Below, one piece after another: positions 44,180 to 59,763 of a stretch of 64,000 nucleotides of DNA (positions are counted from its first letter, which is position 1; each line of letters starts with the position of its first letter). A program made the position numbers and the translations under genes. The DNA lies in sequence record OQ718158.1; one strand, 5' to 3'. This stretch comes from Escherichia phage vB_Ec-M-J. Below the pieces are notes generated by a model. The model saw nothing but the letters and a program-made list of their open reading frames with translations. It did not search any database and was not told where the DNA came from.

Positions 44180-44234
44180 GTTTTACATCGAGAGCGGGAA
44201 CACTTCCCGCTACATATTACGAGAGATTAAAACG

Positions 44235-44597: not shown

Positions 44598-44611
44598 GTT
44601 TTAAAAAGTAC

Positions 44612-44639
44612 TTGCAAACTAAGTTTAAAAGCGTATAAT
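44612..44639 (+). promoter_or_regulatory. class-A early promoter
   Basis: same consensus; hairpin at 44651..44671. Confidence 0.7.
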
Positions 44640-44691
44640 GTTTTACATCAGGTGGGGAATAGTTCCCCACTATAATTAAGAGATTAATTTC

Positions 44692-44925
44692 ATGAGTACT
44701 ATTTTAACTGTTTCTCAATCCGTTGCACTGACTGACCTATTAAACGCTTTAAGCCGTTGCACTGAGGTTGGCTTGTTTGATGTGGTAGACGTTGCACCGG
44801 ACGTTATTAATCATTTTTGTGATGCGATGGAAGAATGTAAGGAAGATGATAGCCGTATGATGGCGGTCGCCTTTGAGGAAGTACAACCAGGTGAGATCAA
44901 AGGTTTACCAGTACTGAAAAAATAG
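44692..44925 (+). CDS. small early-type ORF (hypothetical)
   Basis: behind class-A promoter and hairpin GGTGGGGAATAGTTCCCCACT. Confidence 0.55.
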   Translation: MSTILTVSQSVALTDLLNALSRCTEVGLFDVVDVAPDVINHFCDAMEECKEDDSRMMAVAFEEVQPGEIKGLPVLKK

Positions 44926-44928
44926 TAC

Positions 44929-44956
44929 TTGCAAACTAAGTTTAAAAGCGTATAAT
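44929..44956 (+). promoter_or_regulatory. class-A early promoter
   Basis: same consensus; hairpin at 44968..44988. Confidence 0.7.
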
Positions 44957-45007
44957 ACTTTCTATCAGGTGGGGAATAGTTCCCCACTATATAAGAGGAT
45001 TTAAAAA

Positions 45008-45247
45008 ATGGCTAAATCAAAAATGTTCTTAGGTCACAAAAACAAAACTCATTGGAATGTAAGCCTTTGGATTAATAACGATGAGTCATTGTACCGGTTG
45101 GCCCAGGACTTTATTAACGATAGCACTAATCGCAATGATGCGGCCCGTCATATGATGTTATTTTTAGAACAGACTGGACAAGATAAAACACCGGACGGAT
45201 TCAAATATAGCACTACTGCGATCCGTGCGGCGATGGTTGGAATGTAA
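45008..45247 (+). CDS. small early-type ORF, paralog of 47111..47350
   Basis: shared HKNKTHWNVSLWINN and C-terminal TPDGFKYSTTAIRAAMVGM. Confidence 0.65.
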   Translation: MAKSKMFLGHKNKTHWNVSLWINNDESLYRLAQDFINDSTNRNDAARHMMLFLEQTGQDKTPDGFKYSTTAIRAAMVGM

Positions 45248-45335
45248 TAGAATAGAATTTATTTAAAGTACTATTGCACGGGGATAGTACTTTATAATAG
45301 TGTTTTATTCATACACCAACGATAAGGGCAACAGC

Positions 45336-45602
45336 ATGAATATTAAGTATTTTGCGACGCGTGAACAAGCTCGGATCGCCGCACGGCAGGACGGGGCAAC
45401 GTTTAAAGATATGGGCGTACAATCGGAACGTGGTAAACGTTGGGCCATTGTAAAGCGTAGTACCGCCAGATCATTACAGTACTGGTTAGCGGCCTTAAAA
45501 AGTCCCGATAGTGTATCGCGTCGAGTGGTAGAAATAAAGCTCGACCGAAAGGGCAACCGCGTGACTGTGTACCGTACTAAAAAGATTGCAGTACTTGAAT
45601 AA
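45336..45602 (+). CDS. small early-type ORF, paralog of 57850..58245
   Basis: track ORF trimmed to ATG after AAGGGCAACAGC; shared FATREQARI...RKGNRVTVY. Confidence 0.6.
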   Translation: MNIKYFATREQARIAARQDGATFKDMGVQSERGKRWAIVKRSTARSLQYWLAALKSPDSVSRRVVEIKLDRKGNRVTVYRTKKIAVLE

Positions 45603-45609
45603 AAAGTAC

Positions 45610-45637
45610 TTGCAAACTATGTTTAATGGCGTATAAT
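45610..45637 (+). promoter_or_regulatory. class-A early promoter
   Basis: TTGCAA-N16-TATAAT then GCGGGAACACTTCCCGC hairpin. Confidence 0.7.
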
Positions 45638-45689
45638 GTTTTACATCGAGAGCGGGAACACTTCCCGCCTATAACCTGGAGTAATAAAA

Positions 45690-45920
45690 ATGACTAATAT
45701 GTATATGACTGAAGTTAAAACCGTAAAAGATACTACCACGAATAAAACTACTTACTTACAGCGGATCTGCGGTGTATGGCAACGTATCAGCAAATCAAAG
45801 TACTTTAAATTAACATCATATGCAAACCGTTCGGATTCATTCAGTACTGAAATAAAAGGTAATAAAGTACACCAATACGGCACTTATTATTATTATAGCC
45901 TGGACGCGATTGCAGTCTAA
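45690..45920 (+). CDS. small early-type ORF (hypothetical)
   Basis: behind class-A promoter and hairpin; GGAG RBS. Confidence 0.55.
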   Translation: MTNMYMTEVKTVKDTTTNKTTYLQRICGVWQRISKSKYFKLTSYANRSDSFSTEIKGNKVHQYGTYYYYSLDAIAV

Positions 45921-46201
45921 GCAGTTTACAAATCTTTACAATTGCCGGTATTGACTTATTTTGTCAGTACTGGCATAATGTATTCATTGGCAGATAAGCC
46001 GTAGCCCATAGGGTGCGGGAGTGTATCTATAGAAAAATTAGTTTAGTACAGTTACAATTGTGCACCCGGTGGGTTAGCTGTTGTCATGGGGTATATTATG
46101 CCAGTACTTGATAATGCTGTCAATACTTTTTTAATATTCAGTACTGAAAACTATTTTTAAAAAGTACTTGCAAACTATGTTTAAAGGCGTATAATGTTTT
46201 A

Positions 46202-46276
46202 CATCAGGACGGGGAACGAAATAAGTAACTTCCCGTTAAGTAGCCCAGGAGTAAGGCACACGAAAAACTCCCCTGA
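46202..46276 (+). ncRNA. candidate structured leader or small RNA, copy A
   Basis: ORF-free transcribed segment between two promoters; ATCAGG...CCTGAT closing stem plus inner ACGGG/CCCGT stem. Confidence 0.35.
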
Positions 46277-46327
46277 TAAAATAGTTTGACAATTGTTTTT
46301 AAAAGCGTATAATACTTACATCAACTA

Positions 46328-46453
46328 CTGAATGAGGGTTACAAAATGAAAACTATCACTACTACTACTTTCGTTATGGATTTTTCTGAATTGAATGAGG
46401 GTTGCAAAGCGAAAACTGTCACTAATACTACTTTCGTTATGGATTTTTCTGAA
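46328..46453 (+). repeat. 63-bp tandem duplication spanning the start of gene 46346
   Basis: TGAATGAGGGTT(A/G)CAAA...TTTCGTTATGGATTTTTCTGAAT occurs twice. Confidence 0.7.
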
Positions 46454-47020
46454 TTGAACGCAGAACAAAAAACGTCAGCTATCGAACTGGTTCGGGAACG
46501 TGAAAAAAACTTAAACGATGATTATTTTTCTGAAAGTGAAATTGAATACTATAAAGAAACAGTACTACCGGAATATGGCATTAATGACGCTGAAATACAA
46601 TTCAGTGGTTTTTGGTCCCAGGGTGACGGTGCATCAATCAGTACTGACCACGTTGACGCAGTGAAGTTTTTACGCAAGGTAAGAGCATTAACTAAATATC
46701 GCTCAATCCGTCACTTGCTGAATGAAGATGATTTGGCGATGAGTGTAAAGCGTTCTCACTCCCACTACTCGCATGAGAATACTGTAAGCGGGTACATTGA
46801 ATCGGCTTACACTGATTTAACCGCAAAACAAGAAACGTTAGTTAATGAGCTTGAGGAACTACTCACTGAAACTATTCGTGAATTATCCCGCAAGTTGTAC
46901 CGTGATTTAGAGAATGCATATGAGGATCAATTCACTACTGAAAACATTACGGCACTGATTGAGGGTAACGAATATCAATTCAATGTTATTAATGGCGTAG
47001 TAGAATCAATCGAATATTAA
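46346..47020 (+). CDS. hypothetical protein with 21-aa N-terminal tandem duplication
   Basis: 224-aa track ORF; 63-bp direct duplication spans the start region. Confidence 0.6.
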   Translation: MKTITTTTFVMDFSELNEGCKAKTVTNTTFVMDFSELNAEQKTSAIELVREREKNLNDDYFSESEIEYYKETVLPEYGINDAEIQFSGFWSQGDGASISTDHVDAVKFLRKVRALTKYRSIRHLLNEDDLAMSVKRSHSHYSHENTVSGYIESAYTDLTAKQETLVNELEELLTETIRELSRKLYRDLENAYEDQFTTENITALIEGNEYQFNVINGVVESIEY

Positions 47021-47110
47021 TTTAAAAAGTACTTGCAAACTAAGTTTAAAGGCGTATAATACTTTATATCGAGGCGGGGAGTGGTTCCCCGCTCAAACGA
47101 GGATTAAAAA

Positions 47111-47350
47111 ATGGCTAGTACTAAAACTTACAACGGGCACAAAAACAAAACTCATTGGAATGTTTCCTTATGGATTAATAACGGTGAGTCATTGTATCGG
47201 CTTGCTCAAAGTTGCATCGCACAAAGTAGAACTAAAGATATTGCTGCGGAATGTATGTACCGCAGATTAAAAGCCAACGGTACTACTACAACGCCGGACG
47301 GATTCAAGTATAGCACTACGGCGATCCGTGCTGCAATGGTTGGAATGTAA
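47111..47350 (+). CDS. small early-type ORF, paralog of 45008..45247
   Basis: near-identical N- and C-terminal blocks; own promoter and hairpin. Confidence 0.65.
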   Translation: MASTKTYNGHKNKTHWNVSLWINNGESLYRLAQSCIAQSRTKDIAAECMYRRLKANGTTTTPDGFKYSTTAIRAAMVGM

Positions 47351-47408
47351 TATTCAGTACTGTAACAATGGCGGGGAATGGTTCCCGCCTTTATTGAGGG
47401 TTTATCTA

Positions 47409-47669
47409 ATGAGTAAAGTAATTAGCTATACAGTACTAAGCAAGTCATTATCTATTAGCCAGTGCACCGATGGTTATTGGCTATTTGATGAAACGCGTGG
47501 AATGAATTTAGCTATGCGTGCAAAAACTGCTGAGGCGGCGTATCTTGAGGCACTGGAATACTACCAGGAACGTTTAACGGAAGTAGAAGAAGATTATAAA
47601 AGCCTCAAAGCGAAAGTAGATCATTTCGTCGGTCAATTCATCGAGGAAGACGACGACAAACAATATTGA
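47409..47669 (+). CDS. small early-type ORF (hypothetical)
   Basis: track ORF trimmed to ATG after GAGGG; acidic C-terminus. Confidence 0.5.
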   Translation: MSKVISYTVLSKSLSISQCTDGYWLFDETRGMNLAMRAKTAEAAYLEALEYYQERLTEVEEDYKSLKAKVDHFVGQFIEEDDDKQY

Positions 47670-47755
47670 AAAAGTACTTGCAATTAGTTTTAAGTACTGT
47701 ATAATGGTTTACATCAAAGGGAGAAATGGTTCTCCCTGGTAATGAGGAAAATAAA

Positions 47756-47977
47756 ATGGCTAATATCACTACTCTTTCCCAACTGGAAGCACTGGTTAAA
47801 TCTATGCGGGAACATGCCGACAAAATCGGCGTACAAGATCCAGCCGTTTGCTTCTGCGACGAATTGAATGATGATACCCTGGTAATAGCAGAAGTCCAGG
47901 ACGTTTCTAACTATTCCTCGCGTTACACTGGCGGCGTAGCAAATAAAGGTGACTTCTGTTTATACCTTACAAAATAA
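47756..47977 (+). CDS. small early-type ORF (hypothetical)
   Basis: track ORF trimmed to ATG after promoter and hairpin. Confidence 0.55.
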   Translation: MANITTLSQLEALVKSMREHADKIGVQDPAVCFCDELNDDTLVIAEVQDVSNYSSRYTGGVANKGDFCLYLTK

Positions 47978-48220
47978 CAACGCGGGGAGATAATAACTCC
48001 CCGTTACTTTTTCAGTACTGAATCATTTAATAGACGGATCTCGGCACCCGGTGGGTTAGTGACTGTTTCGTCTTGATGTAGTAATTATGCCAGTACTGGA
48101 TGCACTTGTCAACAATTATTTTTCAAATACTTTTTATTAAAATACTTGCAATTAGTTTTTAAACGCGTATAATGTTTTGCATAGGGGGAGCGGTTCCCCT
48201 GGTAACTAAGGAATAAGAAA

Positions 48221-48457
48221 ATGGTCGAACAAATCAAATCAACGTCTTCGAATGTAACGGGAACGGTAGCACACTTTACTAGTGATGAATCGCGGGGCGT
48301 TCCCTATTGTGCTGTACATGTAAACACTGAGGGTAACTACTGGTTTACGGTTTACGGATCATATTCATTTGGACGGCCAGGGCATCAAAAAATTCTGGAT
48401 AAAGTACAACCAACGGGTAAAAATATCACTGCCGAAATGTTTTATAAAAAATCATAA
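48221..48457 (+). CDS. small early-type ORF (hypothetical)
   Basis: behind promoter and hairpin; AAGGAATAAG RBS. Confidence 0.55.
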   Translation: MVEQIKSTSSNVTGTVAHFTSDESRGVPYCAVHVNTEGNYWFTVYGSYSFGRPGHQKILDKVQPTGKNITAEMFYKKS

Positions 48458-48541
48458 AGTACTTGCAATTAGTTTTTAGTACTGTATAATATTTTACATC
48501 GCAAGGGGGAGCGGTTCCCCCTGGTAACTAAGGATAATCAA

Positions 48542-48841
48542 ATGAAAATTGCAATCATCGCCCTGGCTTTATCTGTTTCCTCTTTCGCTGTTAATGCGTC
48601 ATTAGATGTAAGTAGTGAAAAATTCATTCAGTGCACTGTTGCAATGACCGATGAAAGAACTGGCGAGATTGTATTAAAGGATTTAGAGATCCAGCCGGAA
48701 GCATTTAAAAACGGGCCGTTCCATGAAGAAGACGAAAAAGGTAGCACGACAATTTATTACGATGCCAGTACTAAACGCGGTTCGGTCACTGTAATGGATA
48801 CTGAGAAAGTAACTCATACTGGCGTTATTAATTGCCGTTGA
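48542..48841 (+). CDS. secreted small protein (signal peptide)
   Basis: N-terminus MKIAIIALALSVSSFAVNA; own promoter and hairpin. Confidence 0.6.
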   Translation: MKIAIIALALSVSSFAVNASLDVSSEKFIQCTVAMTDERTGEIVLKDLEIQPEAFKNGPFHEEDEKGSTTIYYDASTKRGSVTVMDTEKVTHTGVINCR

Positions 48842-48862
48842 TAGATACTACGGGGTAACATC

Positions 48863-49093
48863 ATGACTAAGCGAATTGTTTTACTTAACGAAAGCAGTAC
48901 TACACAACTACTTAACGCCGTGCATTATGATATTGAAACGAGCGTTAATCTTATCAGTACTGTCGTACTGTTGGACACTGGAAAGGTCGCCAATGATAAA
49001 GCGATTGCAGGTATATTAACGGATCTTGAGCCTGGTAGCAGTGCACCCATAACGTTAAATGGTAAAGTGTTTAATATTTTACTCACTGATTAA
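48863..49093 (+). CDS. small ORF (hypothetical)
   Basis: 76-aa track ORF co-directional with neighbours. Confidence 0.5.
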   Translation: MTKRIVLLNESSTTQLLNAVHYDIETSVNLISTVVLLDTGKVANDKAIAGILTDLEPGSSAPITLNGKVFNILLTD

Positions 49094-49327
49094 GTACATA
49101 GCCCACCTGGTGGGCTTTTTTTGTTTTTGTAGTATCGTAGTACTGAGATACTTTGAAAATAGTTTTAAAAAAGTAGTTGACATTACCGCAGAAAAGCGTA
49201 GAATGTATTACATCAAGACGGGGAGCACTAAGTAGACCGCCAGTAAGTCGAACGAAAAACTGGACACGTCGAGAAAACTTTGATACACTAATAAACGTAA
49301 ACTAAACTTTAATTGAGGATTTATAAA

Positions 49328-49810
49328 ATGGCTAATGTAAAATCATTCATCAAAGCACTGGTAGCAAATGAAACTAACGTCGCGGCTGAGATCCTGGCTG
49401 AACTGGATAACGATACCATGAAAGCGGTACGCAATAATTTTAACATCGCGTACAGTACTGCGAAAGAACTACAAGCAAATAAAGCGGCAGAAATTGAAGC
49501 GGCAAAGGCTGCCCGTGAAGCAGAACTACAAGCAACAATCGAAAGTATTCAGGCGGCAGTAGTTGGATTGGATCTGGAAGTAGTTACAGAGATGGCACAA
49601 AAAGCCCTGGCGGTTAAGTATGGGGAAGACAAGCCAGAAGTAAAAGCCAAAAAATGGATTCAGGAACGCGTAGCGGTAGTACTGGATAATGGGGAAGAAT
49701 ATCTGATTCCGGTGCGTGGTAACTGTATTGCGGTAGTACTGGACGCGATTAACGCCAGCGGTATGACTCGCGAGGAATGGATCGAATCTCATCGCAAAGT
49801 TGAAGCATAA
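49328..49810 (+). CDS. hypothetical protein (161 aa), Ala/Glu-rich
   Basis: track ORF trimmed to ATG after GAGGA; followed by strong terminator. Confidence 0.6.
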   Translation: MANVKSFIKALVANETNVAAEILAELDNDTMKAVRNNFNIAYSTAKELQANKAAEIEAAKAAREAELQATIESIQAAVVGLDLEVVTEMAQKALAVKYGEDKPEVKAKKWIQERVAVVLDNGEEYLIPVRGNCIAVVLDAINASGMTREEWIESHRKVEA

Positions 49811-49831
49811 CAATTAAAGTACTGAATCACT

Positions 49832-49857
49832 AGCCCACTGTATAAGTGGGCTTTTTT
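49832..49857 (+). terminator. rho-independent terminator
   Basis: AGCCCACTGTATAAGTGGGCT then TTTTTT. Confidence 0.7.
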
Positions 49858-50094
49858 GTGTTTATCGTTTACCAGGCCACCAGCACCGCCTAGAAACGAT
49901 TCTAACGTATTAAACTGTTTATCTGATGCATTGCCCTAGCTGGTGGCGTGAAGGTCGTTAGAATGCGATTGAGAGCGTTTAAAGTATTTTGCAAAAAGTA
50001 ATAAAAAGTACTTGCACGATTAAGAGATTAGCGTATAATGTTTTACATCGAGAGGGGGAAACGGTTCTCCTTCCAAATCAAAGGAATCAAAACA

Positions 50095-50322
50095 ATGGCT
50101 ATCGTAATCACTCGCGTAACTGGTACTACTGGCAATTCTTCTACTGTTGCTGTAATTACTAATAAGAAAGGTGCGGAATTGCATTTTGCAATGGATAAAT
50201 GGGCCGTTAATGAGTTCGGTCAGTGGGCAAGTGTAGCATACATTGAAACCTATCAAGTGCCGTCGATTAGTTTAACTGATTTGGGCGTTGAGCGTATCCT
50301 TTGCCTTGATGAATTAAATTAA
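50095..50322 (+). CDS. small early-type ORF (hypothetical)
   Basis: track ORF trimmed to ATG after promoter and hairpin. Confidence 0.55.
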   Translation: MAIVITRVTGTTGNSSTVAVITNKKGAELHFAMDKWAVNEFGQWASVAYIETYQVPSISLTDLGVERILCLDELN

Positions 50323-50407
50323 AAAAGTACTTGCAAAGTAAATCGAATAAAGTATAATACATTACATCAAGGGGAGAAATGGTTCTCCCCACTACAAGGA
50401 AACTAAA

Positions 50408-50551
50408 ATGAAAACTTGTCAATGTGGTCAGAAATCTATTACGGGTTTAAAGCGGGGCGTTGCTCTTTGCCAGTACCATTATAATTTACAAGTATGGGGT
50501 AAAGAATGGGCCGACCAGGTGGAAGCAGCAAAGAAAGCAAAAAGTAAGTAA
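50408..50551 (+). CDS. small Cys-containing ORF (47 aa)
   Basis: hand-found ORF below track threshold; CQCG...CQYH; own promoter and hairpin. Confidence 0.45.
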   Translation: MKTCQCGQKSITGLKRGVALCQYHYNLQVWGKEWADQVEAAKKAKSK

Positions 50552-50569
50552 AATATTATCACAGTACTA

Positions 50570-50598
50570 TTGACATAGTTTGATAGTACTGGCATAAT
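50570..50598 (+). promoter_or_regulatory. class-B promoter (TTGACA-N17-CATAAT flanked by AGTACT)
   Basis: CAGTACTATTGACATAGTTTGATAGTACTGGCATAAT; repeated at 50864, about 53706 and about 61900. Confidence 0.65.
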
Positions 50599-50631
50599 AG
50601 ATTTTATCAAGACAACTAAGAGGAAACAATA

Positions 50632-50844
50632 ATGGCTATCATCACAAAAATCAAAGTTAACAAATCACTGGTTAAACTTGAACAAGTGAAAGCAGGTTAT
50701 AAAGTATCGTGGTGCGGTATGTATCGGATGTTCACCGATATAGACAATGCAATCAAGTACTACACTGACACCGTTGCCTCATTCGTTCGTGCTGATGTGG
50801 TTATGGCAGTGGCAACGCACAAAGCAGCGAAAGAAAGTAAGTAA
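50632..50844 (+). CDS. small early-type ORF (hypothetical)
   Basis: behind class-B promoter TTGACA-N17-CATAAT; AAGAGGAAAC RBS. Confidence 0.55.
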   Translation: MAIITKIKVNKSLVKLEQVKAGYKVSWCGMYRMFTDIDNAIKYYTDTVASFVRADVVMAVATHKAAKESK

Positions 50845-50863
50845 AAATATTATCACAGTACTA

Positions 50864-50892
50864 TTGACATAGTTTGATAGTACTGGCATAAT
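50864..50892 (+). promoter_or_regulatory. class-B promoter
   Basis: identical block to 50570..50598. Confidence 0.65.
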
Positions 50893-50933
50893 AGATTTTA
50901 TCAAGACAACATATTAATTTAAGGAATACAAAA

Positions 50934-51257
50934 ATGGCTAAAACTATCATTAACACCGTTTCCCTGGCTGCAATCCGTGCAATCAATGTTGACGGTAAAC
51001 GTTGGACTGATTCATATGGCAATACTTATCATTCTTGTCATGTAAGCGTTGAACTGGATAACGGTTTGAATGATCTGGCGGTTGAATCATTTACTTATGG
51101 CTATGAAGATGCATATCAACAAACGGCGTTATCTCTCTTAAAGGAATCAGTAGACGGGCTTAATACTGATGAAACCTCCCTTACTCGTGTGTGCAATGAT
51201 CTTAATATCCCGTTGCATTGTACTGTACAGAATGTTAAACGCAAAAAAGATCTTTAA
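50934..51257 (+). CDS. small early-type ORF, paralog of 57431..57754
   Basis: shared RWTDSYGNTYHSCHVS and C-terminal VKRKKDL. Confidence 0.65.
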   Translation: MAKTIINTVSLAAIRAINVDGKRWTDSYGNTYHSCHVSVELDNGLNDLAVESFTYGYEDAYQQTALSLLKESVDGLNTDETSLTRVCNDLNIPLHCTVQNVKRKKDL

Positions 51258-51336
51258 TTAGCTTTACTTTATGCAGATACTTTGATATAGTGTCTGCATA
51301 GGGGAAAGAAATTAAACTACTTAAGAGGATCGTATA

Positions 51337-51606
51337 ATGAAAAATATCAGTACTTTAATCGATGCAGGTACTCATGTTCGTCGGTCTATGGTTGCAACCA
51401 GTACTACAAAACAAGTAGCGAGCGGTTATCTTGTATTTGTGCACGATGGTAAACTCCTGGAACGTTCAATCAATTTTGATGTTAAAAACAATTGCCGTTT
51501 TATTATCTTTAAGCGTGAGCAATATAAAATTGATTTACCAGCAAAGCCCATTAGTGGGGCGTACAACGTGCAATCATTGTTTGAACGTCAACCATACACC
51601 TATTAA
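51337..51606 (+). CDS. small ORF (hypothetical)
   Basis: 89-aa track ORF; AAGAGGA RBS. Confidence 0.55.
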   Translation: MKNISTLIDAGTHVRRSMVATSTTKQVASGYLVFVHDGKLLERSINFDVKNNCRFIIFKREQYKIDLPAKPISGAYNVQSLFERQPYTY

Positions 51607-51657
51607 TCAAAACATCGTTAGCGGTCGATTCAGGCCGCTTATATTGGGGATTATACC

Positions 51658-51930
51658 ATGAACGTTAATCAAGTACTGAATGAGATCGAAAGCATCATTA
51701 AACCGATGAAGCGTACTGATGCTATGTTAACACCGGAAGAATGCCGCCTTTATGAGCGTTACAGCGTCGAACAAGTCCAGGCAATGGCTATGGCTACCCC
51801 AGCCGTTAAACCGCCTGAGAATGCGTTACAGGACGTTACAGGGGATTATATCATCAATCCAGTACTAGGGAAGATGGCTGCAATCACCGAAGATCAACAA
51901 GACTACTTAAGCCAGTACTTAAAAGGTTAA
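51658..51930 (+). CDS. small ORF (hypothetical)
   Basis: 90-aa track ORF; GGGG RBS. Confidence 0.5.
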   Translation: MNVNQVLNEIESIIKPMKRTDAMLTPEECRLYERYSVEQVQAMAMATPAVKPPENALQDVTGDYIINPVLGKMAAITEDQQDYLSQYLKG

Positions 51931-51935
51931 TTAAT

Positions 51936-52145
51936 ATGCTTACTGTACAGGATAAGATCGACATCTTAAAGGTTAATATGTATGTGATTGATGCAGTACC
52001 TGGTAAAGTATTTGCCTACGATGACACCACTGTAAGCGATTTCTACTATAGCCAGGCCGTGGGGGATCTTTCTGTACAGTCGGTTATTGAAAACGTAGTT
52101 AATGCAGCGTATGAGCATTTACTTTCAAATAGTACTTGCAATTAG
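51936..52145 (+). CDS. small ORF (hypothetical)
   Basis: 69-aa ORF; stop falls inside next promoter. Confidence 0.5.
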   Translation: MLTVQDKIDILKVNMYVIDAVPGKVFAYDDTTVSDFYYSQAVGDLSVQSVIENVVNAAYEHLLSNSTCN

Positions 52146-52214
52146 TTTTTAAACGCGTATAATGTTTTACATGAAGGGGAGAAATGATTCTCCCCACTAA
52201 TTAAGGAATATGAA

Positions 52215-52361
52215 ATGAAAGCATCAAAAAAGAGTACTAACAAGAAAGCACGTTCAACCTTAGATGGGGTATTCCCTTTACGTTTCGTTGATGAAGTGGT
52301 TTCCTACCCGCCTGGCCTTACTCCTGAGATGGTAGAAAGTTTGCGTAAATCTAAAAAATAG
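52215..52361 (+). CDS. small basic ORF (48 aa)
   Basis: hand-found ORF below track threshold; own promoter and hairpin. Confidence 0.45.
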   Translation: MKASKKSTNKKARSTLDGVFPLRFVDEVVSYPPGLTPEMVESLRKSKK

Positions 52362-52442
52362 TACTTGCAATTAGTTTTTAGTACTGTATAATGTTTTACA
52401 TGAAGGGGAGAAATGATTCTCCCCAATAACAGGAGAAACAAA

Positions 52443-52595
52443 ATGAAACAATACAACGCTCGGTTTGATGTTACTATCGGTAACGGCAAAGGTCAATTCT
52501 CTTTCAGTACTCGCAAAAGTTATACAGAAAACTTCCTGCGTAATTGTGCACTGACCGCCGCACAAATTAAACATTACTTTCAGGCTAAAAAATGA
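52443..52595 (+). CDS. small ORF (50 aa)
   Basis: track ORF trimmed to ATG after promoter and hairpin. Confidence 0.5.
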   Translation: MKQYNARFDVTIGNGKGQFSFSTRKSYTENFLRNCALTAAQIKHYFQAKK

Positions 52596-52681
52596 AATCA
52601 TTAGCTTACTATAGTTCTGCGGTGATCGGTGCATTGATCGCGGCGTTGTTAGTAACCTATCTATTCTTTATGGTGATTTAA

Positions 52682-52825
52682 ATGAATCCAACAGGTTTAA
52701 ACTATAAAAGTTGTTCGGCGTTTACGAAAGCAAATAAAGCGAATGCACGTAAAGCGAAAGTACAGGAATACATCAAGCAAGGCATGACGCGAAAAGCGGC
52801 GATTATAAAAGCTAAAAATAAATGA
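52682..52825 (+). CDS. small basic ORF (47 aa)
   Basis: hand-found ORF; preceded by a 29-aa hydrophobic mini-ORF at about 52592..52681. Confidence 0.4.
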   Translation: MNPTGLNYKSCSAFTKANKANARKAKVQEYIKQGMTRKAAIIKAKNK

Positions 52826-52831
52826 AAAAAG

Positions 52832-52862
52832 TGGTTGACTCCGGTCAGCCATTTTGCTATTA
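52832..52862 (+). terminator. fused terminator-promoter module, UCCG-loop variant
   Basis: GGTTGAC-TCCG-GTCAGCC then TTTTGCTATTATAT. Confidence 0.55.
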
Positions 52863-53036
52863 TATATTCATTGAGAGATAGCTCACTAGCCCACAGGGTG
52901 CATAAGTGTATCTATTATATGAGTATTGAGTACTGAAAACTATTTTTAAAAAGTACTTGCAAACTATCTCAATAAGCGTATAATGTTTTACATCGAGAGG
53001 GGGAAACGGTTTCCCCTGGTAATAAGGAAACAAATC

Positions 53037-53378
53037 ATGACTATCTCAATTGCTCAATCTAACTTTGAAAATGAAATCATCGCCCAGGCACTGCGTTTAA
53101 ATGATGGTCGGGCCGAAATTAATTACGGTTTCAATTCAGGCGGTTGCGAAAACTATCAGTACTTTGTAACGGCTGATGGCGGTGTCCTGGGTATCAATAC
53201 AGTTATTGTAAACATCCAAAAAATTAATTTCAATGATCCAGACGATAGCCAGTTTTACATCACTGGCGTAGACGTGAACTATGAGGATGACTCACTAACT
53301 GATGATCACACTGGCGAGCGGTTAGAAAGTGCATACGGTGAAGATGATTATCAGTCCGGTCCAGAAGATTTCGAATAA
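53037..53378 (+). CDS. small acidic early-type ORF
   Basis: track ORF trimmed to ATG after promoter and hairpin. Confidence 0.55.
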   Translation: MTISIAQSNFENEIIAQALRLNDGRAEINYGFNSGGCENYQYFVTADGGVLGINTVIVNIQKINFNDPDDSQFYITGVDVNYEDDSLTDDHTGERLESAYGEDDYQSGPEDFE

Positions 53379-53473
53379 TATAAAAAATAGTTTGACAATA
53401 GATTATAGTACTGTATAATTAATTACATCAAGGGGAGAAAAACTTCTCCCCACTAACAGAGAGAGAAAACAAA

Positions 53474-53686
53474 ATGGCTAATATCCGGTCGAAATTAAAA
53501 AATGCAAAACAAGTTTTATTTTCAGATCATGAATACTTTAATAAAGATATTACAGGAGTTACAAGTATCAAGGAAGTAAAAGAAAAAACCGGCGTTTTGT
53601 GTGATGTGCGATTAGTTGGGACATTTGGGAATAACGTGCTATATCGCTGCGGTGATTACAATTTTACACTGACTATCATTAACTAA
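53474..53686 (+). CDS. small early-type ORF (hypothetical)
   Basis: behind TTGACA-variant promoter and hairpin. Confidence 0.55.
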   Translation: MANIRSKLKNAKQVLFSDHEYFNKDITGVTSIKEVKEKTGVLCDVRLVGTFGNNVLYRCGDYNFTLTIIN

Positions 53687-53769
53687 AAATATTATCACAG
53701 TACTATTGACATAGTTTGATAGTACTGACATAATAACTTTTATCAACTACACTACTAAGGAATTAAAAA

Positions 53770-53949
53770 ATGGCTATCATCGCAAAAACTGAAATCGTTG
53801 GTCTGGATTCTATCATCATGACGTTTGAAGATCAAAAAGGTATGTATGTAGTTTCCTATGGTGATTATGTTCGGGAGTATGAAACGGTAGACGAAGCCTT
53901 TGAAAGTTATATTCGCCAGGTGAATAAAGCATACGACGACTACCGCTAA
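53770..53949 (+). CDS. small ORF (59 aa), loosely similar to 50632..50844
   Basis: hand-found ORF below track threshold; behind class-B promoter; N-terminal MAII. Confidence 0.45.
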   Translation: MAIIAKTEIVGLDSIIMTFEDQKGMYVVSYGDYVREYETVDEAFESYIRQVNKAYDDYR

Positions 53950-54048
53950 AATATATTACCAGTACTATTAAATCTATTGACAACGTTTGATAGTACTGTA
54001 TAATAAGTTTTATAAACAGTAGTTAACTTAACCTAAGAGAGAAACAAA

Positions 54049-54192
54049 ATGATCGCACTGGATTCATTCATCGACGCAGTACTGGCAAAAACTGGCGAGG
54101 ATCTGACCGCAGAACAATACGCGATGATCGAGCAATGTCAGCAAAACGGTAAATCGGTGAAAGATACTGTTAAGATTATCCGCAAGATGTAA
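54049..54192 (+). CDS. small ORF (47 aa)
   Basis: hand-found ORF; class-B-like promoter upstream; terminator hairpin downstream. Confidence 0.4.
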   Translation: MIALDSFIDAVLAKTGEDLTAEQYAMIEQCQQNGKSVKDTVKIIRKM

Positions 54193-54198
54193 TATTAT

Positions 54199-54226
54199 AG
54201 CCCACTGGTTAACGCTGGTGGGCTTT
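54199..54226 (+). terminator. terminator-like hairpin containing a Chi octamer
   Basis: AGCCCACTGGTTAACGCTGGTGGGCT then TTT. Confidence 0.5.
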
Positions 54227-54297
54227 AATCATTTACCCTATACAATGCCAGTACTAAACCGTTTATCTCGTTAGAATGCGTTACAGGACGTTTGACA

Positions 54298-54495
54298 ATG
54301 ATTAGCATGAAATCAGTACAAAAACAAATAGAAACATTATCAAAAATTAAACGTAAACAATACTCGTTAGAATATACAATCAATGGTAACTATCATCTAA
54401 TGAAAGAAAATAATTTTATAGTCATTGATGAATCATTGCAAGTTATTAGTATAGTACTGAAAGCATTAATTAATGATAGAAAAAAATTAAAATAA
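54298..54495 (+). CDS. small AT-rich ORF (hypothetical)
   Basis: track ORF (TTG) trimmed to ATG; composition differs from neighbours. Confidence 0.4.
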   Translation: MISMKSVQKQIETLSKIKRKQYSLEYTINGNYHLMKENNFIVIDESLQVISIVLKALINDRKKLK

Positions 54496-54823
54496 TTGTT
54501 GACATACAATGCCAGTACTGGCATAATACTTACATCAAGACGAGAACGTCACTAACCCATAGGGTGCACAAATGTAACTATATAATATCGATCAATAAAT
54601 GATCAAAAAAGTACTGGATCAATTTAGCATAAGGAGTATAATTCTGATCAATTCTTGATCAAAGGCAATATACGCAGTTGAATTTATATAGACAGTACAA
54701 AGGCGTTACTATCCGTGGTAATGCTGATGGATATGTAGTATCATACGGTTTGAATAAGATAAGCACTAGTAGTATTATTGTAGCATTACAGTACTATAGT
54801 ATTTTTATAATGAGGTTAAAATA

Positions 54824-55081
54824 ATGGCTGTTGGATTCGCGAAGGACGGGGCCGAGCAAGACGAGATTAACGCAGTTATTCAGGCCGCTGTAAACCACGC
54901 TAGAACGCAAATTAACGCACAAATAGAATCACTGATACATTGCCTCGACTGTGGCGATAAAATCCCTGAGAATCGCCGCCAGGTCGTTAAGGGGTGTAAG
55001 TACTGTATCACTTGCCAGGAGGATCATGATAGTACTTTTAAACGTCAACCGCGTAATTGTTGGCATAGATCTATGAGATAA
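54824..55081 (+). CDS. TraR/DksA-family-like C4 zinc-finger protein
   Basis: CLDCG...(17 aa)...CITCQ, the CxxC-N17-CxxC spacing typical of TraR/DksA. Confidence 0.55.
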   Translation: MAVGFAKDGAEQDEINAVIQAAVNHARTQINAQIESLIHCLDCGDKIPENRRQVVKGCKYCITCQEDHDSTFKRQPRNCWHRSMR

Positions 55082-55144
55082 AAAGTATTGACAGTACTAT
55101 CCAGTAGTGTATAATGTTTTATATCTTAACTGAGGATAGAAATC

Positions 55145-55501
55145 ATGGGAATACAACATATCACGCGTACTACTGACAATGGCGAGATCACTGGCTATCA
55201 AGTACAGGGCAAAGTAGCACAATTGCAGTACTGGTTTGTTAAACGTGGAATCATTGCACCGGATCTTGATTATGACCGTGTAGCGTTTATTGATTCTCTT
55301 TATGTTGATCCTGATAGTCGGGGGAATGGTGAAGGTAACGAATTAATGAATGCCTTTATTGATGCCGCCGATGATTCAGATTGTATCATCTTAGAATGCG
55401 ATACGGGAGAAGATAACGCCTTTAATCTTAAAGAATGGTATGAAGGTTTCGGATTCGAGGTACTGATCGATAGTGAATATCCTATCATGATTTTATCATA
55501 G
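55145..55501 (+). CDS. small GNAT-like acetyltransferase (putative)
   Basis: LYVDPDSRGNGEGNELMNAFIDAA resembles GNAT acetyl-CoA-binding motif A. Confidence 0.4.
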   Translation: MGIQHITRTTDNGEITGYQVQGKVAQLQYWFVKRGIIAPDLDYDRVAFIDSLYVDPDSRGNGEGNELMNAFIDAADDSDCIILECDTGEDNAFNLKEWYEGFGFEVLIDSEYPIMILS

Positions 55502-55580
55502 TACTTGCATTTAGTTTTCAGTACTGTATAATAGTTTACATGAAGGGGAGAATAGTTCTCCCCACTACAAGGAAAGACAA

Positions 55581-55769
55581 ATGGAAAACTTATCAAGTAT
55601 TTTAGTACAAGATGATTTCGGTAATCCTGGAAGTGCTATCATTGTTCGGGGTAATAAAGCAACGTTTGTTATTGCTGGTGGACCCGTACAGCGTAGCATT
55701 AAAAATAATGCTGTTACCATTAATAATGTACGCTATCGCTTAGATAAAGAATTAATTCATAAACTGTAA
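55581..55769 (+). CDS. small early-type ORF (hypothetical)
   Basis: behind class-A promoter and hairpin. Confidence 0.55.
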   Translation: MENLSSILVQDDFGNPGSAIIVRGNKATFVIAGGPVQRSIKNNAVTINNVRYRLDKELIHKL

Positions 55770-55855
55770 AAAAGTACTGGACAATAGATTATAGTACTGT
55801 ATAATAAGTTACATGAAGGGGAGAAAATGATTCTCCCCACTAAGAGGAAAGAAAA

Positions 55856-56068
55856 ATGCAAGGTCAACTAATCGTTCGTAAATGGTCTGATACTAACGCT
55901 AAACCGTGGGATGTACAATACATCGCCCCCAATGGTGAATCCAGATATCAACCAGGTGTAACGCATAGTACTGAGCAATTCGCCGCCGCTCATCGTGAAC
56001 GTCTGTTACAATCAATGCAGCAAGGTTTCGGTGAAAAATTCATTCAGGATCATTGGCTGAAAGATTAA
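55856..56068 (+). CDS. small early-type ORF (hypothetical)
   Basis: behind TTGGACA-type promoter and hairpin. Confidence 0.55.
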   Translation: MQGQLIVRKWSDTNAKPWDVQYIAPNGESRYQPGVTHSTEQFAAAHRERLLQSMQQGFGEKFIQDHWLKD

Positions 56069-56154
56069 AAAGTTCTTGCACAGTACTGAATAAAGTGTAT
56101 AATGTTTTATATCGAGAGGGGAATAGTTCCCCTCCTAACAAAAAGGAAAGTATA

Positions 56155-56328
56155 ATGATCCAAGTAGAATTATCAGTACTGAAAGATCTATTTTATCGGT
56201 TAGGTACTAATGGCGAGTATCCTAAAAGTGATACCGCAAAACTTTTTGTATCACTCGACTTATGGCAACGCGAACAATTAGTAATGTCGTGGCGTAAAGG
56301 TAAAGCAGATCGCGAGGTGAAAGCATGA
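56155..56328 (+). CDS. small early-type ORF (57 aa)
   Basis: track ORF trimmed to ATG after promoter and hairpin. Confidence 0.5.
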   Translation: MIQVELSVLKDLFYRLGTNGEYPKSDTAKLFVSLDLWQREQLVMSWRKGKADREVKA

Positions 56329-56474
56329 AAGAATTCTTATTTGAAGTAGTGTTTCAAGGTGTCGGTAGTAACCAACTGATTCGCTCAAGTGGTTACAATG
56401 TTAACCAGGCATGGAATAACATTAAACAAATGTACCCGAACGCTATCACATATCGCAACCCGAAAGAAGTTTAA
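56325..56474 (+). CDS. small ORF (49 aa), translationally coupled
   Basis: hand-found ORF; ATGA overlap; followed by terminator/promoter module. Confidence 0.45.
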   Translation: MKEFLFEVVFQGVGSNQLIRSSGYNVNQAWNNIKQMYPNAITYRNPKEV

Positions 56475-56488
56475 AAATAATTGAAAAA

Positions 56489-56521
56489 GGGATTGACTCC
56501 GGTCAGTCCCTTTGCTATTAT
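56489..56521 (+). terminator. fused terminator-promoter module, UCCG-loop variant
   Basis: GGGATTGAC-TCCG-GTCAGTCCC then TTTGCTATTATAT. Confidence 0.6.
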
Positions 56522-56656
56522 ATACGCATAGAAACAAATTAGCCCACCGGGTGCATAAATGTATCTATTGTTTGCTGGTGGCTAGTACTATCAAGTACTG
56601 AAAACTATTTTTAAAAAGTACTTGCAAAGTATCACGATAAGCGTATAATGTTTTAC

Positions 56657-56729
56657 ATCAGGACGGGGAACGAAACAAGTAACCCCGTTAAGTAGTCCAG
56701 GAGTAAGACATACGAAAAACTCCCCTGAT
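56657..56729 (+). ncRNA. candidate structured leader or small RNA, copy B
   Basis: about 90% identical to copy A, with stem-preserving differences. Confidence 0.35.
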
Positions 56730-56798
56730 AAAATAGTTTGACAATAGAAAGTAAACGAGTATAATACTTACATCAACCACTGATAAGGAAACATTAAA

Positions 56799-57074
56799 AT
56801 GCGGATTCTACTGACAGCTAACGAAATCGAACAAGTACTGACTACTAACCTGGAAGACTGGAAACGTGAAGCAGATATCCAGGCGGTTCAATGGCTTAAT
56901 GATAAGTTAACGCCGGATGATTTAAGTAAGATTGTAGATCCTCAATTCTACGAAGATATTCACGACACCGCGTTAAGCGTCGAGGATGTACTTGATAAGC
57001 ACTACATTGATACTGATTTACATGTTTACGGTCGTAAAAACTTTATCACTATTCACGACATTTACAATACTTAA
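56799..57074 (+). CDS. small acidic early-type ORF
   Basis: downstream of duplicated dual-promoter cassette. Confidence 0.55.
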   Translation: MRILLTANEIEQVLTTNLEDWKREADIQAVQWLNDKLTPDDLSKIVDPQFYEDIHDTALSVEDVLDKHYIDTDLHVYGRKNFITIHDIYNT

Positions 57075-57160
57075 GTATTGACAAAGTATCTTAGTACTGT
57101 ATAATAGTTTACATCGAGAGGGGAAACGGTTCCCCTCCTAACAAAGAGAGAGAAATAAAA

Positions 57161-57343
57161 ATGGCTAAGTGCACTATCTGCAAGAAAGAAATAGTATTAG
57201 TTCCAAGTGCCCGTGAACGTGCCGCTCGGTTTGGTGGCAAAGCGTCAGACTATACAAAAATGTTTACTGCCCATACAGCTTGCCAGGTAGCAAAACGTTC
57301 ACAAGAAAGCGTAGAATTAATGCGTAAACTTTCCAAAAAATAA
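57161..57343 (+). CDS. small early-type ORF with Cys pairs
   Basis: CTICKK...HTACQ; behind promoter and hairpin. Confidence 0.55.
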   Translation: MAKCTICKKEIVLVPSARERAARFGGKASDYTKMFTAHTACQVAKRSQESVELMRKLSKK

Positions 57344-57430
57344 GTATTGACAAAGTATCTTAGTACTGTATAATAGTTTACATCAAGCGAGGGGAATGGT
57401 TCCCCTCCTAACAAAGAGAGAGAAATAAAA

Positions 57431-57754
57431 ATGGCTATGATCCTTACCCAGAAAGTAGAACTGAAAATTGTAACCTCCTTTGACATTAACGTTAATCGGT
57501 GGACTGATTCACACGGCAATACTTACCACTCTTGCTACGTGTCTGCGTTAATTGGCGACCGCTGGGAAGACCTGGGACACGAAACCTTTACATACGGTTA
57601 CGGTACACAAGGCGAATACACGGGCTTGGAGATCATTAAAGAAACCGTTATAGGTTTCAACCCGAAAGAAAAAGTTATTCACCGCATCGAGGAAGAGATC
57701 AACAAAGAAATAACAGTTCGATACAACGATGTAAAACGTAAGAAAGACATGTAA
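57431..57754 (+). CDS. small early-type ORF, paralog of 50934..51257
   Basis: shared RWTDSHGNTYHSCYVS and VKRKKDM; upstream region duplicated from 57161 gene. Confidence 0.65.
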   Translation: MAMILTQKVELKIVTSFDINVNRWTDSHGNTYHSCYVSALIGDRWEDLGHETFTYGYGTQGEYTGLEIIKETVIGFNPKEKVIHRIEEEINKEITVRYNDVKRKKDM

Positions 57755-57849
57755 TAGAATCCATTTAAAGTACTATTTGACATTGCCCAGATAGTACTTT
57801 ATAATAGACTCTAACTTGTAGTACTAACTCAACTAATAGGATGTATACC

Positions 57850-58245
57850 ATGATTACTAAATTCTACGCTACCCGTGAAGCTGCCCGTATTGTTGCACGC
57901 GAGGAAGGAGCAGCATTTAAAGACATGGGCAAAGATGCACCGAAAGGTCAACGCTGGGCCGTACAGTTCAAAGAAATCTCTGATATTGTGAATTCACCTG
58001 AGCCAGTACTGACAGCAGCAGAACTAAAACGAGCGGATATGCTGGCGGCAATACTTGACGCACAAGATGAGTTTATCGCTGATTCTGATATCAAAGTACA
58101 GGTAAACCACACCGCATGGACTCACGCGGATCACCTGGCAAACCTTAAGCGTCCAAGTGAACTGATTCGCAACCAGAAAGAGATCCGACACGACCGTAAG
58201 GGTAATCGTGTAACAGTATACAGTAAACGCCGCCAGGTTATCTAA
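57850..58245 (+). CDS. small early-type ORF, paralog of 45336..45602
   Basis: start set by paralog alignment; shared FYATREAARI...RKGNRVTVY; terminator follows. Confidence 0.6.
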   Translation: MITKFYATREAARIVAREEGAAFKDMGKDAPKGQRWAVQFKEISDIVNSPEPVLTAAELKRADMLAAILDAQDEFIADSDIKVQVNHTAWTHADHLANLKRPSELIRNQKEIRHDRKGNRVTVYSKRRQVI

Positions 58246-58267
58246 TAACTTGCAGTACTAACAACAC

Positions 58268-58292
58268 GGCGGGATCAGTTCCCGCCTTTTTT
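58268..58292 (+). terminator. rho-independent terminator
   Basis: GGCGGGATCAGTTCCCGCC then TTTTTT. Confidence 0.7.
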
Positions 58293-58306
58293 ATAGGACA
58301 AACAAC

Positions 58307-58561
58307 ATGATTAAGGTTCAACTATCAAACGATAATGTATTACGGGTACACTATAAAGCACCTCAGAGAATCATCACAAAGGCCGTACAGCTTGCTAATG
58401 AGTTTATTAATGGTAACCTATTACCTAGGAAGTTAAGCAACGGGAAACTGCGTGTAATCGACGTGGACACTAACAACAGGATAGTAATCGAGAACACAGG
58501 AAAGATAAACCTTTATGAGCATCAACAATACAATAAGAAAATAAAACTAATATCACGTTGA
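58307..58561 (+). CDS. small ORF (hypothetical)
   Basis: 84-aa track ORF; AGGA RBS. Confidence 0.5.
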   Translation: MIKVQLSNDNVLRVHYKAPQRIITKAVQLANEFINGNLLPRKLSNGKLRVIDVDTNNRIVIENTGKINLYEHQQYNKKIKLISR

Positions 58562-58614
58562 CAGTACTCAATTGTTTTAGTACTATGTACACATACCAAC
58601 ACGGGAGAAACAAA

Positions 58615-58833: not shown

Positions 58834-58890
58834 TTGACAGTACTCAAATGTTTTAGTACTATATGTACATACCAACACGGGGGAAACAAA

Positions 58891-59133: not shown

Positions 59134-59164
59134 TATAGTTTCATTAACTCAAGGAGAACATGCA

Positions 59165-59749: not shown

Positions 59750-59763
59750 AAAAGATTAAAAAA

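Follow-up and report, generated by a model that had tools for sequence, protein, structure and literature searches.

Repeated promoter–hairpin cassettes and single-gene exchange in the terminal repeat of a Rak2-related Escherichia jumbo phage

PeSLs are repeated elements known in the T4-type phages RB49/phi1, PST/T4, and nt-1/KVP40, composed of an AT-rich tract, a strong sigma70 promoter, a polyG/polyC stem-loop, and a Shine–Dalgarno (SD) sequence with a start codon; they are found mostly ahead of orphan genes in hyperplastic regions and mark the boundaries of indels between close relatives (Arbiol et al. 2010, PMC2839356; Comeau et al. 2014, PMC4122927). A family of comparable elements, here called cassettes, is present in the 64,000-nt stretch of Escherichia phage vB_Ec-M-J (OQ718158.1) that we analysed and refer to as the window, whose positions serve as coordinates. 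Like PeSLs, the cassettes are repeated units of about 80–100 nt with an AT-rich upstream tract, a strong early-type sigma70-like promoter, a polyG/polyC stem-loop, an SD, and a start codon; they cluster before small orphan genes, here annotated as hypothetical, in a hyperplastic region poorly covered by relatives, and they bound indels between close relatives in which one chimeric element is left. It is likely that the early genes of the direct terminal repeat (DTR) of this phage are carried in portable promoter–hairpin cassettes, and that gene-plus-cassette units are inserted, deleted, and swapped by homologous recombination, as in the PeSL mechanism. No description of such cassettes in Rak2-like phages was found in the literature searched: the CBB paper gives only MEME-predicted RpoD-like promoters, and promoters are not discussed in the papers on fEgEco12 (PMC13070987), Sharanji, and RaK2.

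The promoter family of the direct terminal repeat

Judging by its sequence matches, the phage is an Asteriusvirus, i.e., an E. coli jumbo myovirus of the Rak2-related PBECO4/121Q/G17 group, whose genomes measure 347–386 kb. The nearest match to the region is vB_EcoM_E9.1 (84% coverage, 94.5% identity), while the remaining relatives cover just 30–69% of it, which makes the region a mosaic; over 44–60 kb of the window the coverage by relatives is 30–84%. Position 42476 is the first base of the E9.1 and BF17 records. In fEgEco12, whose DTR of 20,993 bp is experimentally supported (PMC13070987), the segment 19693–20993, ending exactly at the repeat end, corresponds to window 62700–64000 and occurs at two places in the record. 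The region is therefore assigned to the DTR, ca. 42.5–64.0 kb, by mapping onto fEgEco12, E9.1, and BF17 and not from the genome ends of vB_Ec-M-J itself. It contains about 53 small genes, all on the plus strand and typically separated by gaps of 80–95 nt; nearly all are annotated as hypothetical, the few recognisable products being a DksA/TraR zinc-finger protein and a GNAT acetyltransferase.

In the DTR, some 48 strong sigma70 promoters lie between 42.8 and 63.1 kb, every one on the plus strand. A weight-matrix scan gave 32 strong promoters, again all on the plus strand (42851–63087), and a consensus scan listed 45 sites agreeing with 10–12 of the 12 consensus positions, 39 of them on the plus strand, including 11 with a perfect TTGACA-N16/17-TATAAT; with a loose consensus, 103 sites were found versus 65 expected. 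Each cassette has an A-tract, the motif AGTACT, near-consensus -35 and -10 hexamers, and a conserved CAT start region, followed in 26 copies by a G/C hairpin, the SD, and ATG. Nearly every DTR gene is preceded by one cassette, one per gap. An earlier sequence-only reading of this DNA had regarded the repeated promoter blocks as a property of a few gene pairs and missed the family of about 48 copies to which they belong. Six promoter types can be distinguished (Table 1). A promoter of the type AGTACTTGCAA-N16-TATAAT is also found, mostly without the hairpin, in IMG/VR contigs presumed to be RaK2, GAP32, and CBB. Six plus-strand copies of AAAGGGTTGACTTCGGTCAGCCCTTTTTGCTATAAT, whose layout is that of a classical composite terminator/promoter, lie outside the terminal repeat, at 1111, 4705, 7748, 12371, 13849, and 15261; in each of them the stem of an 11-bp terminator with a UUCG loop contains the -35 hexamer and the T-run forms the promoter spacer.

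The hairpin of the 26 cassettes lies in the 5' untranslated region (5'UTR). Its G-run/C-run stem has 7–9 bp and its loop 3–5 nt; it starts 12 nt (range 8–14) past the -10 hexamer (+4 to +6, taking the A of the conserved CAT as the first transcribed base) and ends 17–23 nt ahead of the ATG, with the SD in between. The stem occurs in 16 distinct sequences, and a hairpin-anchored tabulation showed that pairing is kept in every one. A covariance model built from six copies detected 183 copies in the window and eight relatives, all on the plus strand, 27 of them in the window. Among 71 distinct hairpin sequences 97.5% of the cells are paired, with compensatory changes in four of the eight pairs (61 cells); the covariation score is 0.361 versus 0.209 in shuffles, none of 500 of which reached it, and at most 0.17 in slid controls, in an alignment that was fitted to the covariance model and thus favours structure, but with which the independent tabulation agrees. 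The hairpin was missed by unanchored MAFFT alignment of full-length cassettes followed by RNAalifold, because the variable stem and loop lengths put the arms out of register. The predicted folding energy of the 5'UTRs is -13 to -16 kcal/mol (z from -1.5 to -3.4), with the SD single-stranded.

The palindrome AGTACT, of which the promoter architecture noted in the sequence-only reading is made up, is the most frequent hexamer of the window, with 288 occurrences versus 22.5 ± 5.0 in dinucleotide-preserving shuffles, a 13-fold excess. It often stands in the context CAGTACTG, is densest at 36–64 kb, and reaches 9.5 per kb in non-coding versus 3.3 per kb in coding DNA. Comparison with codon-shuffled genes (79 vs. 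17.9, 36 vs. 3.1, and 56 vs. 6.0 in the three codon phases) rejects a codon or dipeptide artefact in all phases. The motif is fully conserved in 93% of the site-by-relative comparisons versus 82% for other hexamers, and is 10–23-fold over-represented in the presumed RaK2, GAP32, and CBB contigs but not in unrelated ones. In 40 of the 48 promoters it occupies two fixed positions, 27 nt and 7–8 nt before the -10 hexamer, i.e., 20 bp apart, over the -35 and beside the -10. The SlmA-binding consensus, which we take to be GTGAGTACTCAC, does not account for it: of the flanking bases, G is rarest at -1 (28 of 288) and C at +6 (21 of 288), and C-AGTACT-G is the favoured form. The searched literature contains no mention of AGTACT in Asteriusvirus or other Rak2-like phages. 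A tentative reading is that selection maintains it as a DNA signal throughout the clade of Rak2-like jumbo phages, with a candidate protein recognising it; if so, such a factor could switch the approximately 48 terminal-repeat promoters off (or on) together, and the whole 350-kb genome could be marked, organised, or protected by it.

Gene gain, loss, and exchange at the cassettes

Chained blastn comparison with six relatives revealed 17 distinct indels or replacements, 15 of which have at least one end, and in most cases both ends, at a cassette or its 5'UTR. Eight of the 17 are the gain or loss of exactly one gene together with one cassette, and in these the lone cassette of one side aligns to both flanking cassettes of the other, with a junction homology of 46–125 nt. 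The homology amounts to 80 nt for gene 44692, 125 nt for 50632, 108 nt for 57161, 85 nt for 58615, and about 100 nt for 60279; of the converse insertions, found in the relatives, those at 47670–47715 and 56725–56801 have 46 and 77 nt, respectively, while that at 55769 is clean, with no measured overlap. The deletion of the acetyltransferase gene 55145 spans from the -10 region of one promoter to that of the next. In E9.1, JP4, and fEgEco12 the genes 47111 and 47409 are swapped, between the same two cassettes, for a gene coding for a 54-aa protein, and the one occupying this slot in E9.1 is a homologue (56% identity) of gene 44692, which has a different slot in the window (slot exchange). Moreover, the lone cassette before the 45008 orthologue of E9.1 is a chimera, its left part corresponding to cassette 44598 and its right part to 44915. 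In a survey of orthologues in eight relatives, the cassettes flanking polymorphic genes proved more similar to each other than those flanking other genes (median 0.71 vs. 0.53, Mann–Whitney p = 0.0009), as is predicted by cassette-to-cassette insertion and excision.

The dominant process thus appears to be the gain, loss, and replacement of single genes through recombination between cassettes shared by the whole family. Host sigma70 RNA polymerase would transcribe each gene from its own cassette once the repeat enters the cell, as suggested by the consensus promoters only, and the hairpin would form a 5'-proximal stem-loop stabilising each mRNA and insulating it from the upstream sequence. The repeats of 80–100 nt standing between almost all pairs of genes would serve as the substrate of homologous recombination, which would delete, insert (possibly via circular intermediates), or exchange the gene-plus-cassette units.

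Several points weigh against this explanation. The location of breakpoints alone is weak evidence, since viable whole-gene indels must fall between genes and the intergenic DNA is almost all cassette; the argument is borne by the junction homology, the E9.1 chimera, and the flank-similarity test. The orthologue survey drew on just eight relatives, from among about 170 matching records. Two of the 17 events show no link to cassettes: the one at 48834|49099, where gene 48863 lacks its own promoter, and a 66-nt tandem duplication at 46392, unique to the window. The latter (46326–46460) covers the SD, the start codon, and the first 15 codons of gene 46346, and none of the six relatives compared has it, so it is genuinely recent. 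As for the hairpin, if +1 is the A of CAT, 3–5 nt precede the stem in eight folded UTRs (up to 6–7 nt by the tabulated spacing), a borderline length for classical 5'-end protection. Finally, the literature searched offers no data on transcription start sites, RNA stability, or termination for this phage group, so that the term "early", the location of +1, and the role of the hairpin are inferred.

Paralog pairs and rival explanations

All-against-all blastp of the 268 open reading frames of the window gave exactly three paralog pairs in 44–64 kb (about 53 genes): 45008/47111, 45336/57850, and 50934/57431. The same pairs had been singled out in the sequence-only reading as sharing long identical blocks and, for the last two, promoters, from which it was deduced that gene-plus-promoter units continue to be duplicated, both in tandem and at dispersed sites. 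Their homology is evident at the protein level, with 67% identity (E 3e-38), 35% identity with a 45-aa insertion (E 3e-19), and 39% identity (E 1e-29), respectively. The coding sequences, however, share 72, 46, and 58% of nucleotides, with longest exact matches of 26, 9, and 12 nt, so "long identical blocks" suits 45008/47111 and the promoters but not the coding DNA of the other two pairs. None of the three families (DUF7249/phrog_871, phrog_8127, and phrog_6246) has an assigned function. In the eight relatives, orthologues of all six genes, where present, are 94–100% identical; since the paralogs are only 35–67% identical, the duplications predate the radiation of the genus. In E9.1 a third, divergent member of the phrog_6246 family (31–33% identity) occupies the 50934 slot, and SP27 has no close 50934 orthologue (best hit 39%). 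The copy number in related genomes does vary for the 45008/47111 family, since some relatives have the second copy while in others another gene takes its place.

The upstream regions, compared as the 85 nt before every start codon and ranked by percentile among all pairs, do not follow the paralogy. The paralogs 45008 and 47111 share the same promoter and 5'UTR subtype (identity 0.84, 99.6th percentile), and 45336 and 57850 both have the rare type IV promoter, its AAAGTACTAT..GATAGTACTTTATAAT strings being present before both genes as had been reported, although with an overall identity of 0.62 (77th percentile); the promoters of 50934 and 57431, in turn, are unrelated (0.53, 42nd percentile). 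The highest similarity is found between unrelated neighbours: 57161/57431 (0.93, 99.9th percentile, with a 44-nt exact match), 50632/50934 (0.81, 99.1th percentile, and 100% over 67 nt), and 58615/58891 (0.80, 99.0th percentile). The repetition of the 57161 promoter before 57431 and the promoter block common to 58615 and 58891 were thus described correctly, but neither is a pair of paralogs, their proteins being unrelated. The best-matching upstream region is that of the immediate neighbour in 26% of cases versus 3.8% expected.

These data bear on two rivals of cassette recombination. Ongoing duplication of genes with their promoters, as the source of both paralogs and repeated promoters, would fit the common cassette subtype and variable copy number of 45008/47111, the type IV promoters of 45336/57850, and the fresh 66-nt duplication in gene 46346; but with just three pairs among some 53 genes, paralogs so much more divergent than the orthologues, unrelated promoters in one pair, and near-identical promoters in front of unrelated genes, it is improbable and, as the main process, largely refuted. 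What stands is that gene plus promoter is the unit of change; the paralogs are old, and common promoters do not demonstrate ongoing gene duplication. The three pairs appear to be old duplicates riding in the cassette system, and co-duplication of gene and cassette seems still clearly visible only for 45008/47111. Alternatively, each promoter and 5'UTR could have been selected independently towards one optimum, with indels arising by illegitimate recombination and surviving only between genes. Functional constraint on the -35, the -10, and the start region is indeed obvious, and viable indels are necessarily intergenic, but the identity extends through spacers, discriminators, loops, and 5'UTR tails, as the 67-nt and 44-nt stretches above illustrate, the subtypes cluster among neighbours, and deletions remove exactly one repeat period, with 80–125 nt of junction homology and chimeric survivor cassettes; this explanation is very improbable.

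A third rival concerns only the hairpin, which might chiefly terminate or attenuate read-through from upstream, or bind a phage regulator, instead of stabilising mRNA. PeSL stem-loops stopped transcription in a lacZ reporter (PMC2839356), hairpins of the same type followed by a T-run stand alone as terminator-like elements at 47370–47389 and 58268–58286, and the type VI elements, with their stem over the -35, resemble intrinsic terminators and are clear terminator-in-promoter composites. The type I and II hairpins, in contrast, are followed by ACTA, CCTAA, or TGGTA and have no T-run, were not called by the terminator scan, and do not coincide with the ARNOLD terminators annotated in G17, which map to other, T-tailed hairpins; moreover, the hairpin sits 3' of its own promoter, so all transcripts of the latter must read through it. 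As intrinsic terminators the cassette hairpins are therefore unsupported, and this third explanation as a whole is unlikely. Protection and insulation of the mRNA 5' end has, in our estimate, an even chance of being the role of the hairpin; attenuation of read-through is doubtful, the binding of a regulator equally so, and any other role is less likely still.

If recombination between cassettes is indeed the mechanism, it explains how the most variable part of these 350–380-kb phages, which are candidates for therapy, changes: the terminal repeat would be a rack of exchangeable single-gene slots, each with a strong promoter, reshuffled by cassette recombination. The paralog pairs themselves are ordinary. 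For annotation, promoter identity in this region should not count as evidence of gene duplication. The family also supplies about 48 natural, graded strong promoter/5'UTR parts.

Table 1. Promoter types, cassettes, polymorphic genes, and paralogs of the terminal repeat (window positions)
Feature	Position	Strand	Remarks
DTR with early-gene region	42476..64000	+	from relatives' record starts and fEgEco12 mapping
Type I signature AAAAAGTACTTGCAA-N16-TATAATGTTTTACATC	many positions	+	hairpin
Type II signature AGTATTGACAAAGTATCTTAGTACTGTATAATAGTTTACATC (TTGACA)	several positions	+	hairpin
Type III signature CACAGTACTATTGACATAGTTTGATAGTACTGGCATAAT	45951, 50570, 50864, 53706, 54499, 61895	+	no hairpin
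Type IV signature AAAGTACTAT(T)TGACA..GATAGTACTTTATAAT	45270, 57777	+	no hairpin
Type V signature TTGACAGTACTCAAATGTTTTAGTACTAT	58558, 58834	+	no hairpin
Type VI signature AAAGGGATTGACTCCGGTCAGTCCCTTT (GCTATTATAT next)	52828, 56486, 59761, 62517		terminator stem over -35; six more at 1.1–15.3 kb
Cassette, type I	44138..44211	+	-35 at 44152, -10 at 44174, hairpin 44193–44211
Cassette, type I	44598..44671	+	before polymorphic gene 44692
Cassette, type I	44915..44988	+	before paralog 45008; hairpin as in 44598, discriminator like that of 47019
Cassette, type I	45596..45668	+	
Cassette, type I	47019..47093	+	before paralog 47111
Cassette, type I	47664..47737	+	breakpoint of insertion and replacement in relatives
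Cassette, type I	48132..48201	+	
Cassette, type I	48449..48522	+	
Cassette, type I	49998..50073	+	213-nt insertion within it in fEgEco12 and G17
Cassette, type I	50317..50390	+	
Cassette, type I	52122..52195	+	
Cassette, type I	52351..52424	+	
Cassette, type I	52943..53017	+	
Cassette, type II (TTGACA)	53378..53451	+	
Cassette, type I	55491..55563	+	right junction of acetyltransferase deletion
Cassette	55764..55838	+	extra gene (324 nt) here in six relatives
Cassette, type I	56062..56134	+	
Cassette, type II	57064..57137	+	before gene 57161
Cassette, type II	57333..57407	+	before paralog 57431; 93% identical to 57064
Cassette, type I	59878..59952	+	
Cassette, type II	60185..60257	+	before polymorphic gene 60279
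Cassette, type II	60679..60751	+	3' of gene 60279
Cassette, type I	61228..61303	+	
Cassette, type I	61564..61634	+	
Cassette, type II	62205..62279	+	
Cassette, type I	63073..63148	+	
Promoter, type III	50550..50616	+	before gene 50632; no hairpin; 67 nt, 100% identical to 50844–50910
Promoter, type III	50844..50910	+	before paralog 50934
Promoter, type III	53686..53752	+	90% identical to 50550; more copies at 45951, 54499, 61895
Promoter, type IV	45264..45298	+	before paralog 45336; two AGTACT motifs; -35 region shortened
Promoter, type IV	57766..57805	+	before paralog 57850
Promoter, type V	58558..58586	+	before gene 58615
Promoter, type V	58834..58862	+	before gene 58891
Composite, type VI	52828..52863	+	terminator hairpin stem contains -35; copies at 56486, 59761, 62517
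Polymorphic unit gene 44692	44692..44925	+	at this site only in BF17 among relatives
Polymorphic unit gene 50632	50632..50844	+	absent in fEgEco12, G17, SP27
GNAT acetyltransferase gene	55145..55501	+	deleted in BF17, G17, SD-1_S14
Polymorphic unit gene 57161	57161..57343	+	absent in JP4
Polymorphic unit gene 58615	58615..58833	+	absent in E9.1, SP27, SD-1_S14
Polymorphic unit gene 60279	60279..60686	+	among relatives only in fEgEco12 and Ecwhy_1
Paralog A1, DUF7249/phrog_871	45008..45247	+	79 aa
Paralog A2, DUF7249	47111..47350	+	79 aa; in BF17, Ecwhy_1, SP27, SD-1_S14; replaced in E9.1, JP4, fEgEco12, G17
Paralog B1, phrog_8127	45336..45602	+	88 aa
Paralog B2, phrog_8127	57850..58245	+	131 aa; 45-aa insertion
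Paralog C1, phrog_6246	50934..51257	+	107 aa
Paralog C2, phrog_6246	57431..57754	+	107 aa

Other features of the window and comparison with known systems

The E. coli Chi sequence GCTGGTGG occurs 15 times in the window versus 0.67 expected. Nine copies in the terminal repeat are on the plus strand (43075, 49939, 54214, 55674, 56574, 58929, 60831, 62410, and 62632), the active orientation for RecBCD entering at the right genome end, and two are on the minus strand (43063 and 49877), with a back-to-back (inverted) pair about 0.6 kb from the left repeat boundary; outside the repeat, Chi is found at 9718 (+) and at 23288, 23426, and 24202 (-). The cluster may serve to protect the genome ends or to stimulate recombination of one repeat with the other, and no mention of Chi enrichment in the terminal repeat was found in the literature searched. 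Together with AGTACT, it might point to a new level of control acting genome-wide, or of end protection, in jumbo phages.

Two tandem arrays precede the DTR. The minus strand at 18633–37112 carries about 16 paralogous genes for proteins of ca. 370–395 aa (25–40% mutual identity), a family far larger than the three pairs discussed above, and the plus strand at 37653–42201, just before the repeat boundary, about 20 tiny paralogous genes (59–81 aa, 28–59% identity), an array also annotated in JP4, G17, and fEgEco12. Just inside the start of the repeat, a 1.7-kb non-coding stretch contains an iteron-like run of degenerate 8-bp units GGCTAGAT / GGCTAAAC / GTCTGGAA (43232–43391), with dense CAGTACTGA motifs around it.

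Conserved non-coding modules of about 140 nt lie at 52826–52950, 56475–56612, 59750–59885, and 62503–62640, with variants at 45951–46036 and 54499–54587 and inverted copies at 43566, 43782, 46061, and 48035; at 45.95–46.12 kb two of them converge on opposite strands. They comprise a terminator-in-promoter element followed by TAGCCCACAGGGTGCATAAGTGTATCTAT, have no Rfam match, and may encode short RNAs of ca. 60–70 nt. Another composite unit consists of a type I promoter, then about 90 nt of structured leader (GGACGGGGAACGAAATAAGTAAC..CCCGTTAAGTAG..), then a second consensus promoter; it is found at 46168–46331, 56622–56783 (89% identical), and 49177–49327, before genes 46346, 56799, and 49328, respectively, and might represent a small RNA or a leader with a regulatory role. 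In 42–64 kb an Rfam search (E up to 0.1) gave a single sub-threshold Trp-leader hit, at the terminator 49795–49859, and ARAGORN found no tRNA or tmRNA; the repeated non-coding modules thus represent no known RNA family.

Among known systems, early or host-takeover modules located in terminal repeats are those of T5 (the pre-early genes) and SPO1. The likeness is one of organisation: many small genes of unassigned function, a long DTR in which the region lies according to its mapping onto relatives, strong host-type promoters, and presumably the first DNA to be expressed. We know of no T5-style first-step transfer in this phage group, and, to our knowledge, a uniform hairpin cassette is not a described feature of the T5 and SPO1 modules. 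The ompA 5'UTR, in which a 5'-terminal stem-loop reportedly acts as an mRNA stabiliser (the 1992 work of Emory, Bouvet, and Belasco), also has a stable hairpin a few nucleotides from the 5' end, with an SD region free of structure after it. Here a similar function would be conceivable, but an unpaired 5' stretch of 3–5 nt lies at the reported limit for protection. As with integron cassettes, single genes of promoterless size are exchanged as units at repeated boundary elements, but integrons rely on attC sites, a site-specific integrase, and one common promoter, while here the boundary element is the promoter itself and the exchange resembles general homologous recombination.

The closest parallel is that with PeSLs, whose defining list also includes excised "mini-circles" of one gene and one element. 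The differences are that the lineage is a Rak2-like jumbo phage and not a T4-type one, that the elements fill a direct terminal repeat, that AGTACT motifs are embedded in the promoters, and that the main stem-loop lies within the 5'UTR (at about +5) and has no U-tract, which makes a PeSL-type terminator function doubtful; type VI, whose terminator overlies the -35, shows the classical layout. With its 26 G-run/C-run hairpins showing compensatory changes, its element-bounded indels, and its chimeric survivor in E9.1, the feature is a set of PeSL-like modular early-gene cassettes and would extend the PeSL mechanism beyond the T4-type phages.

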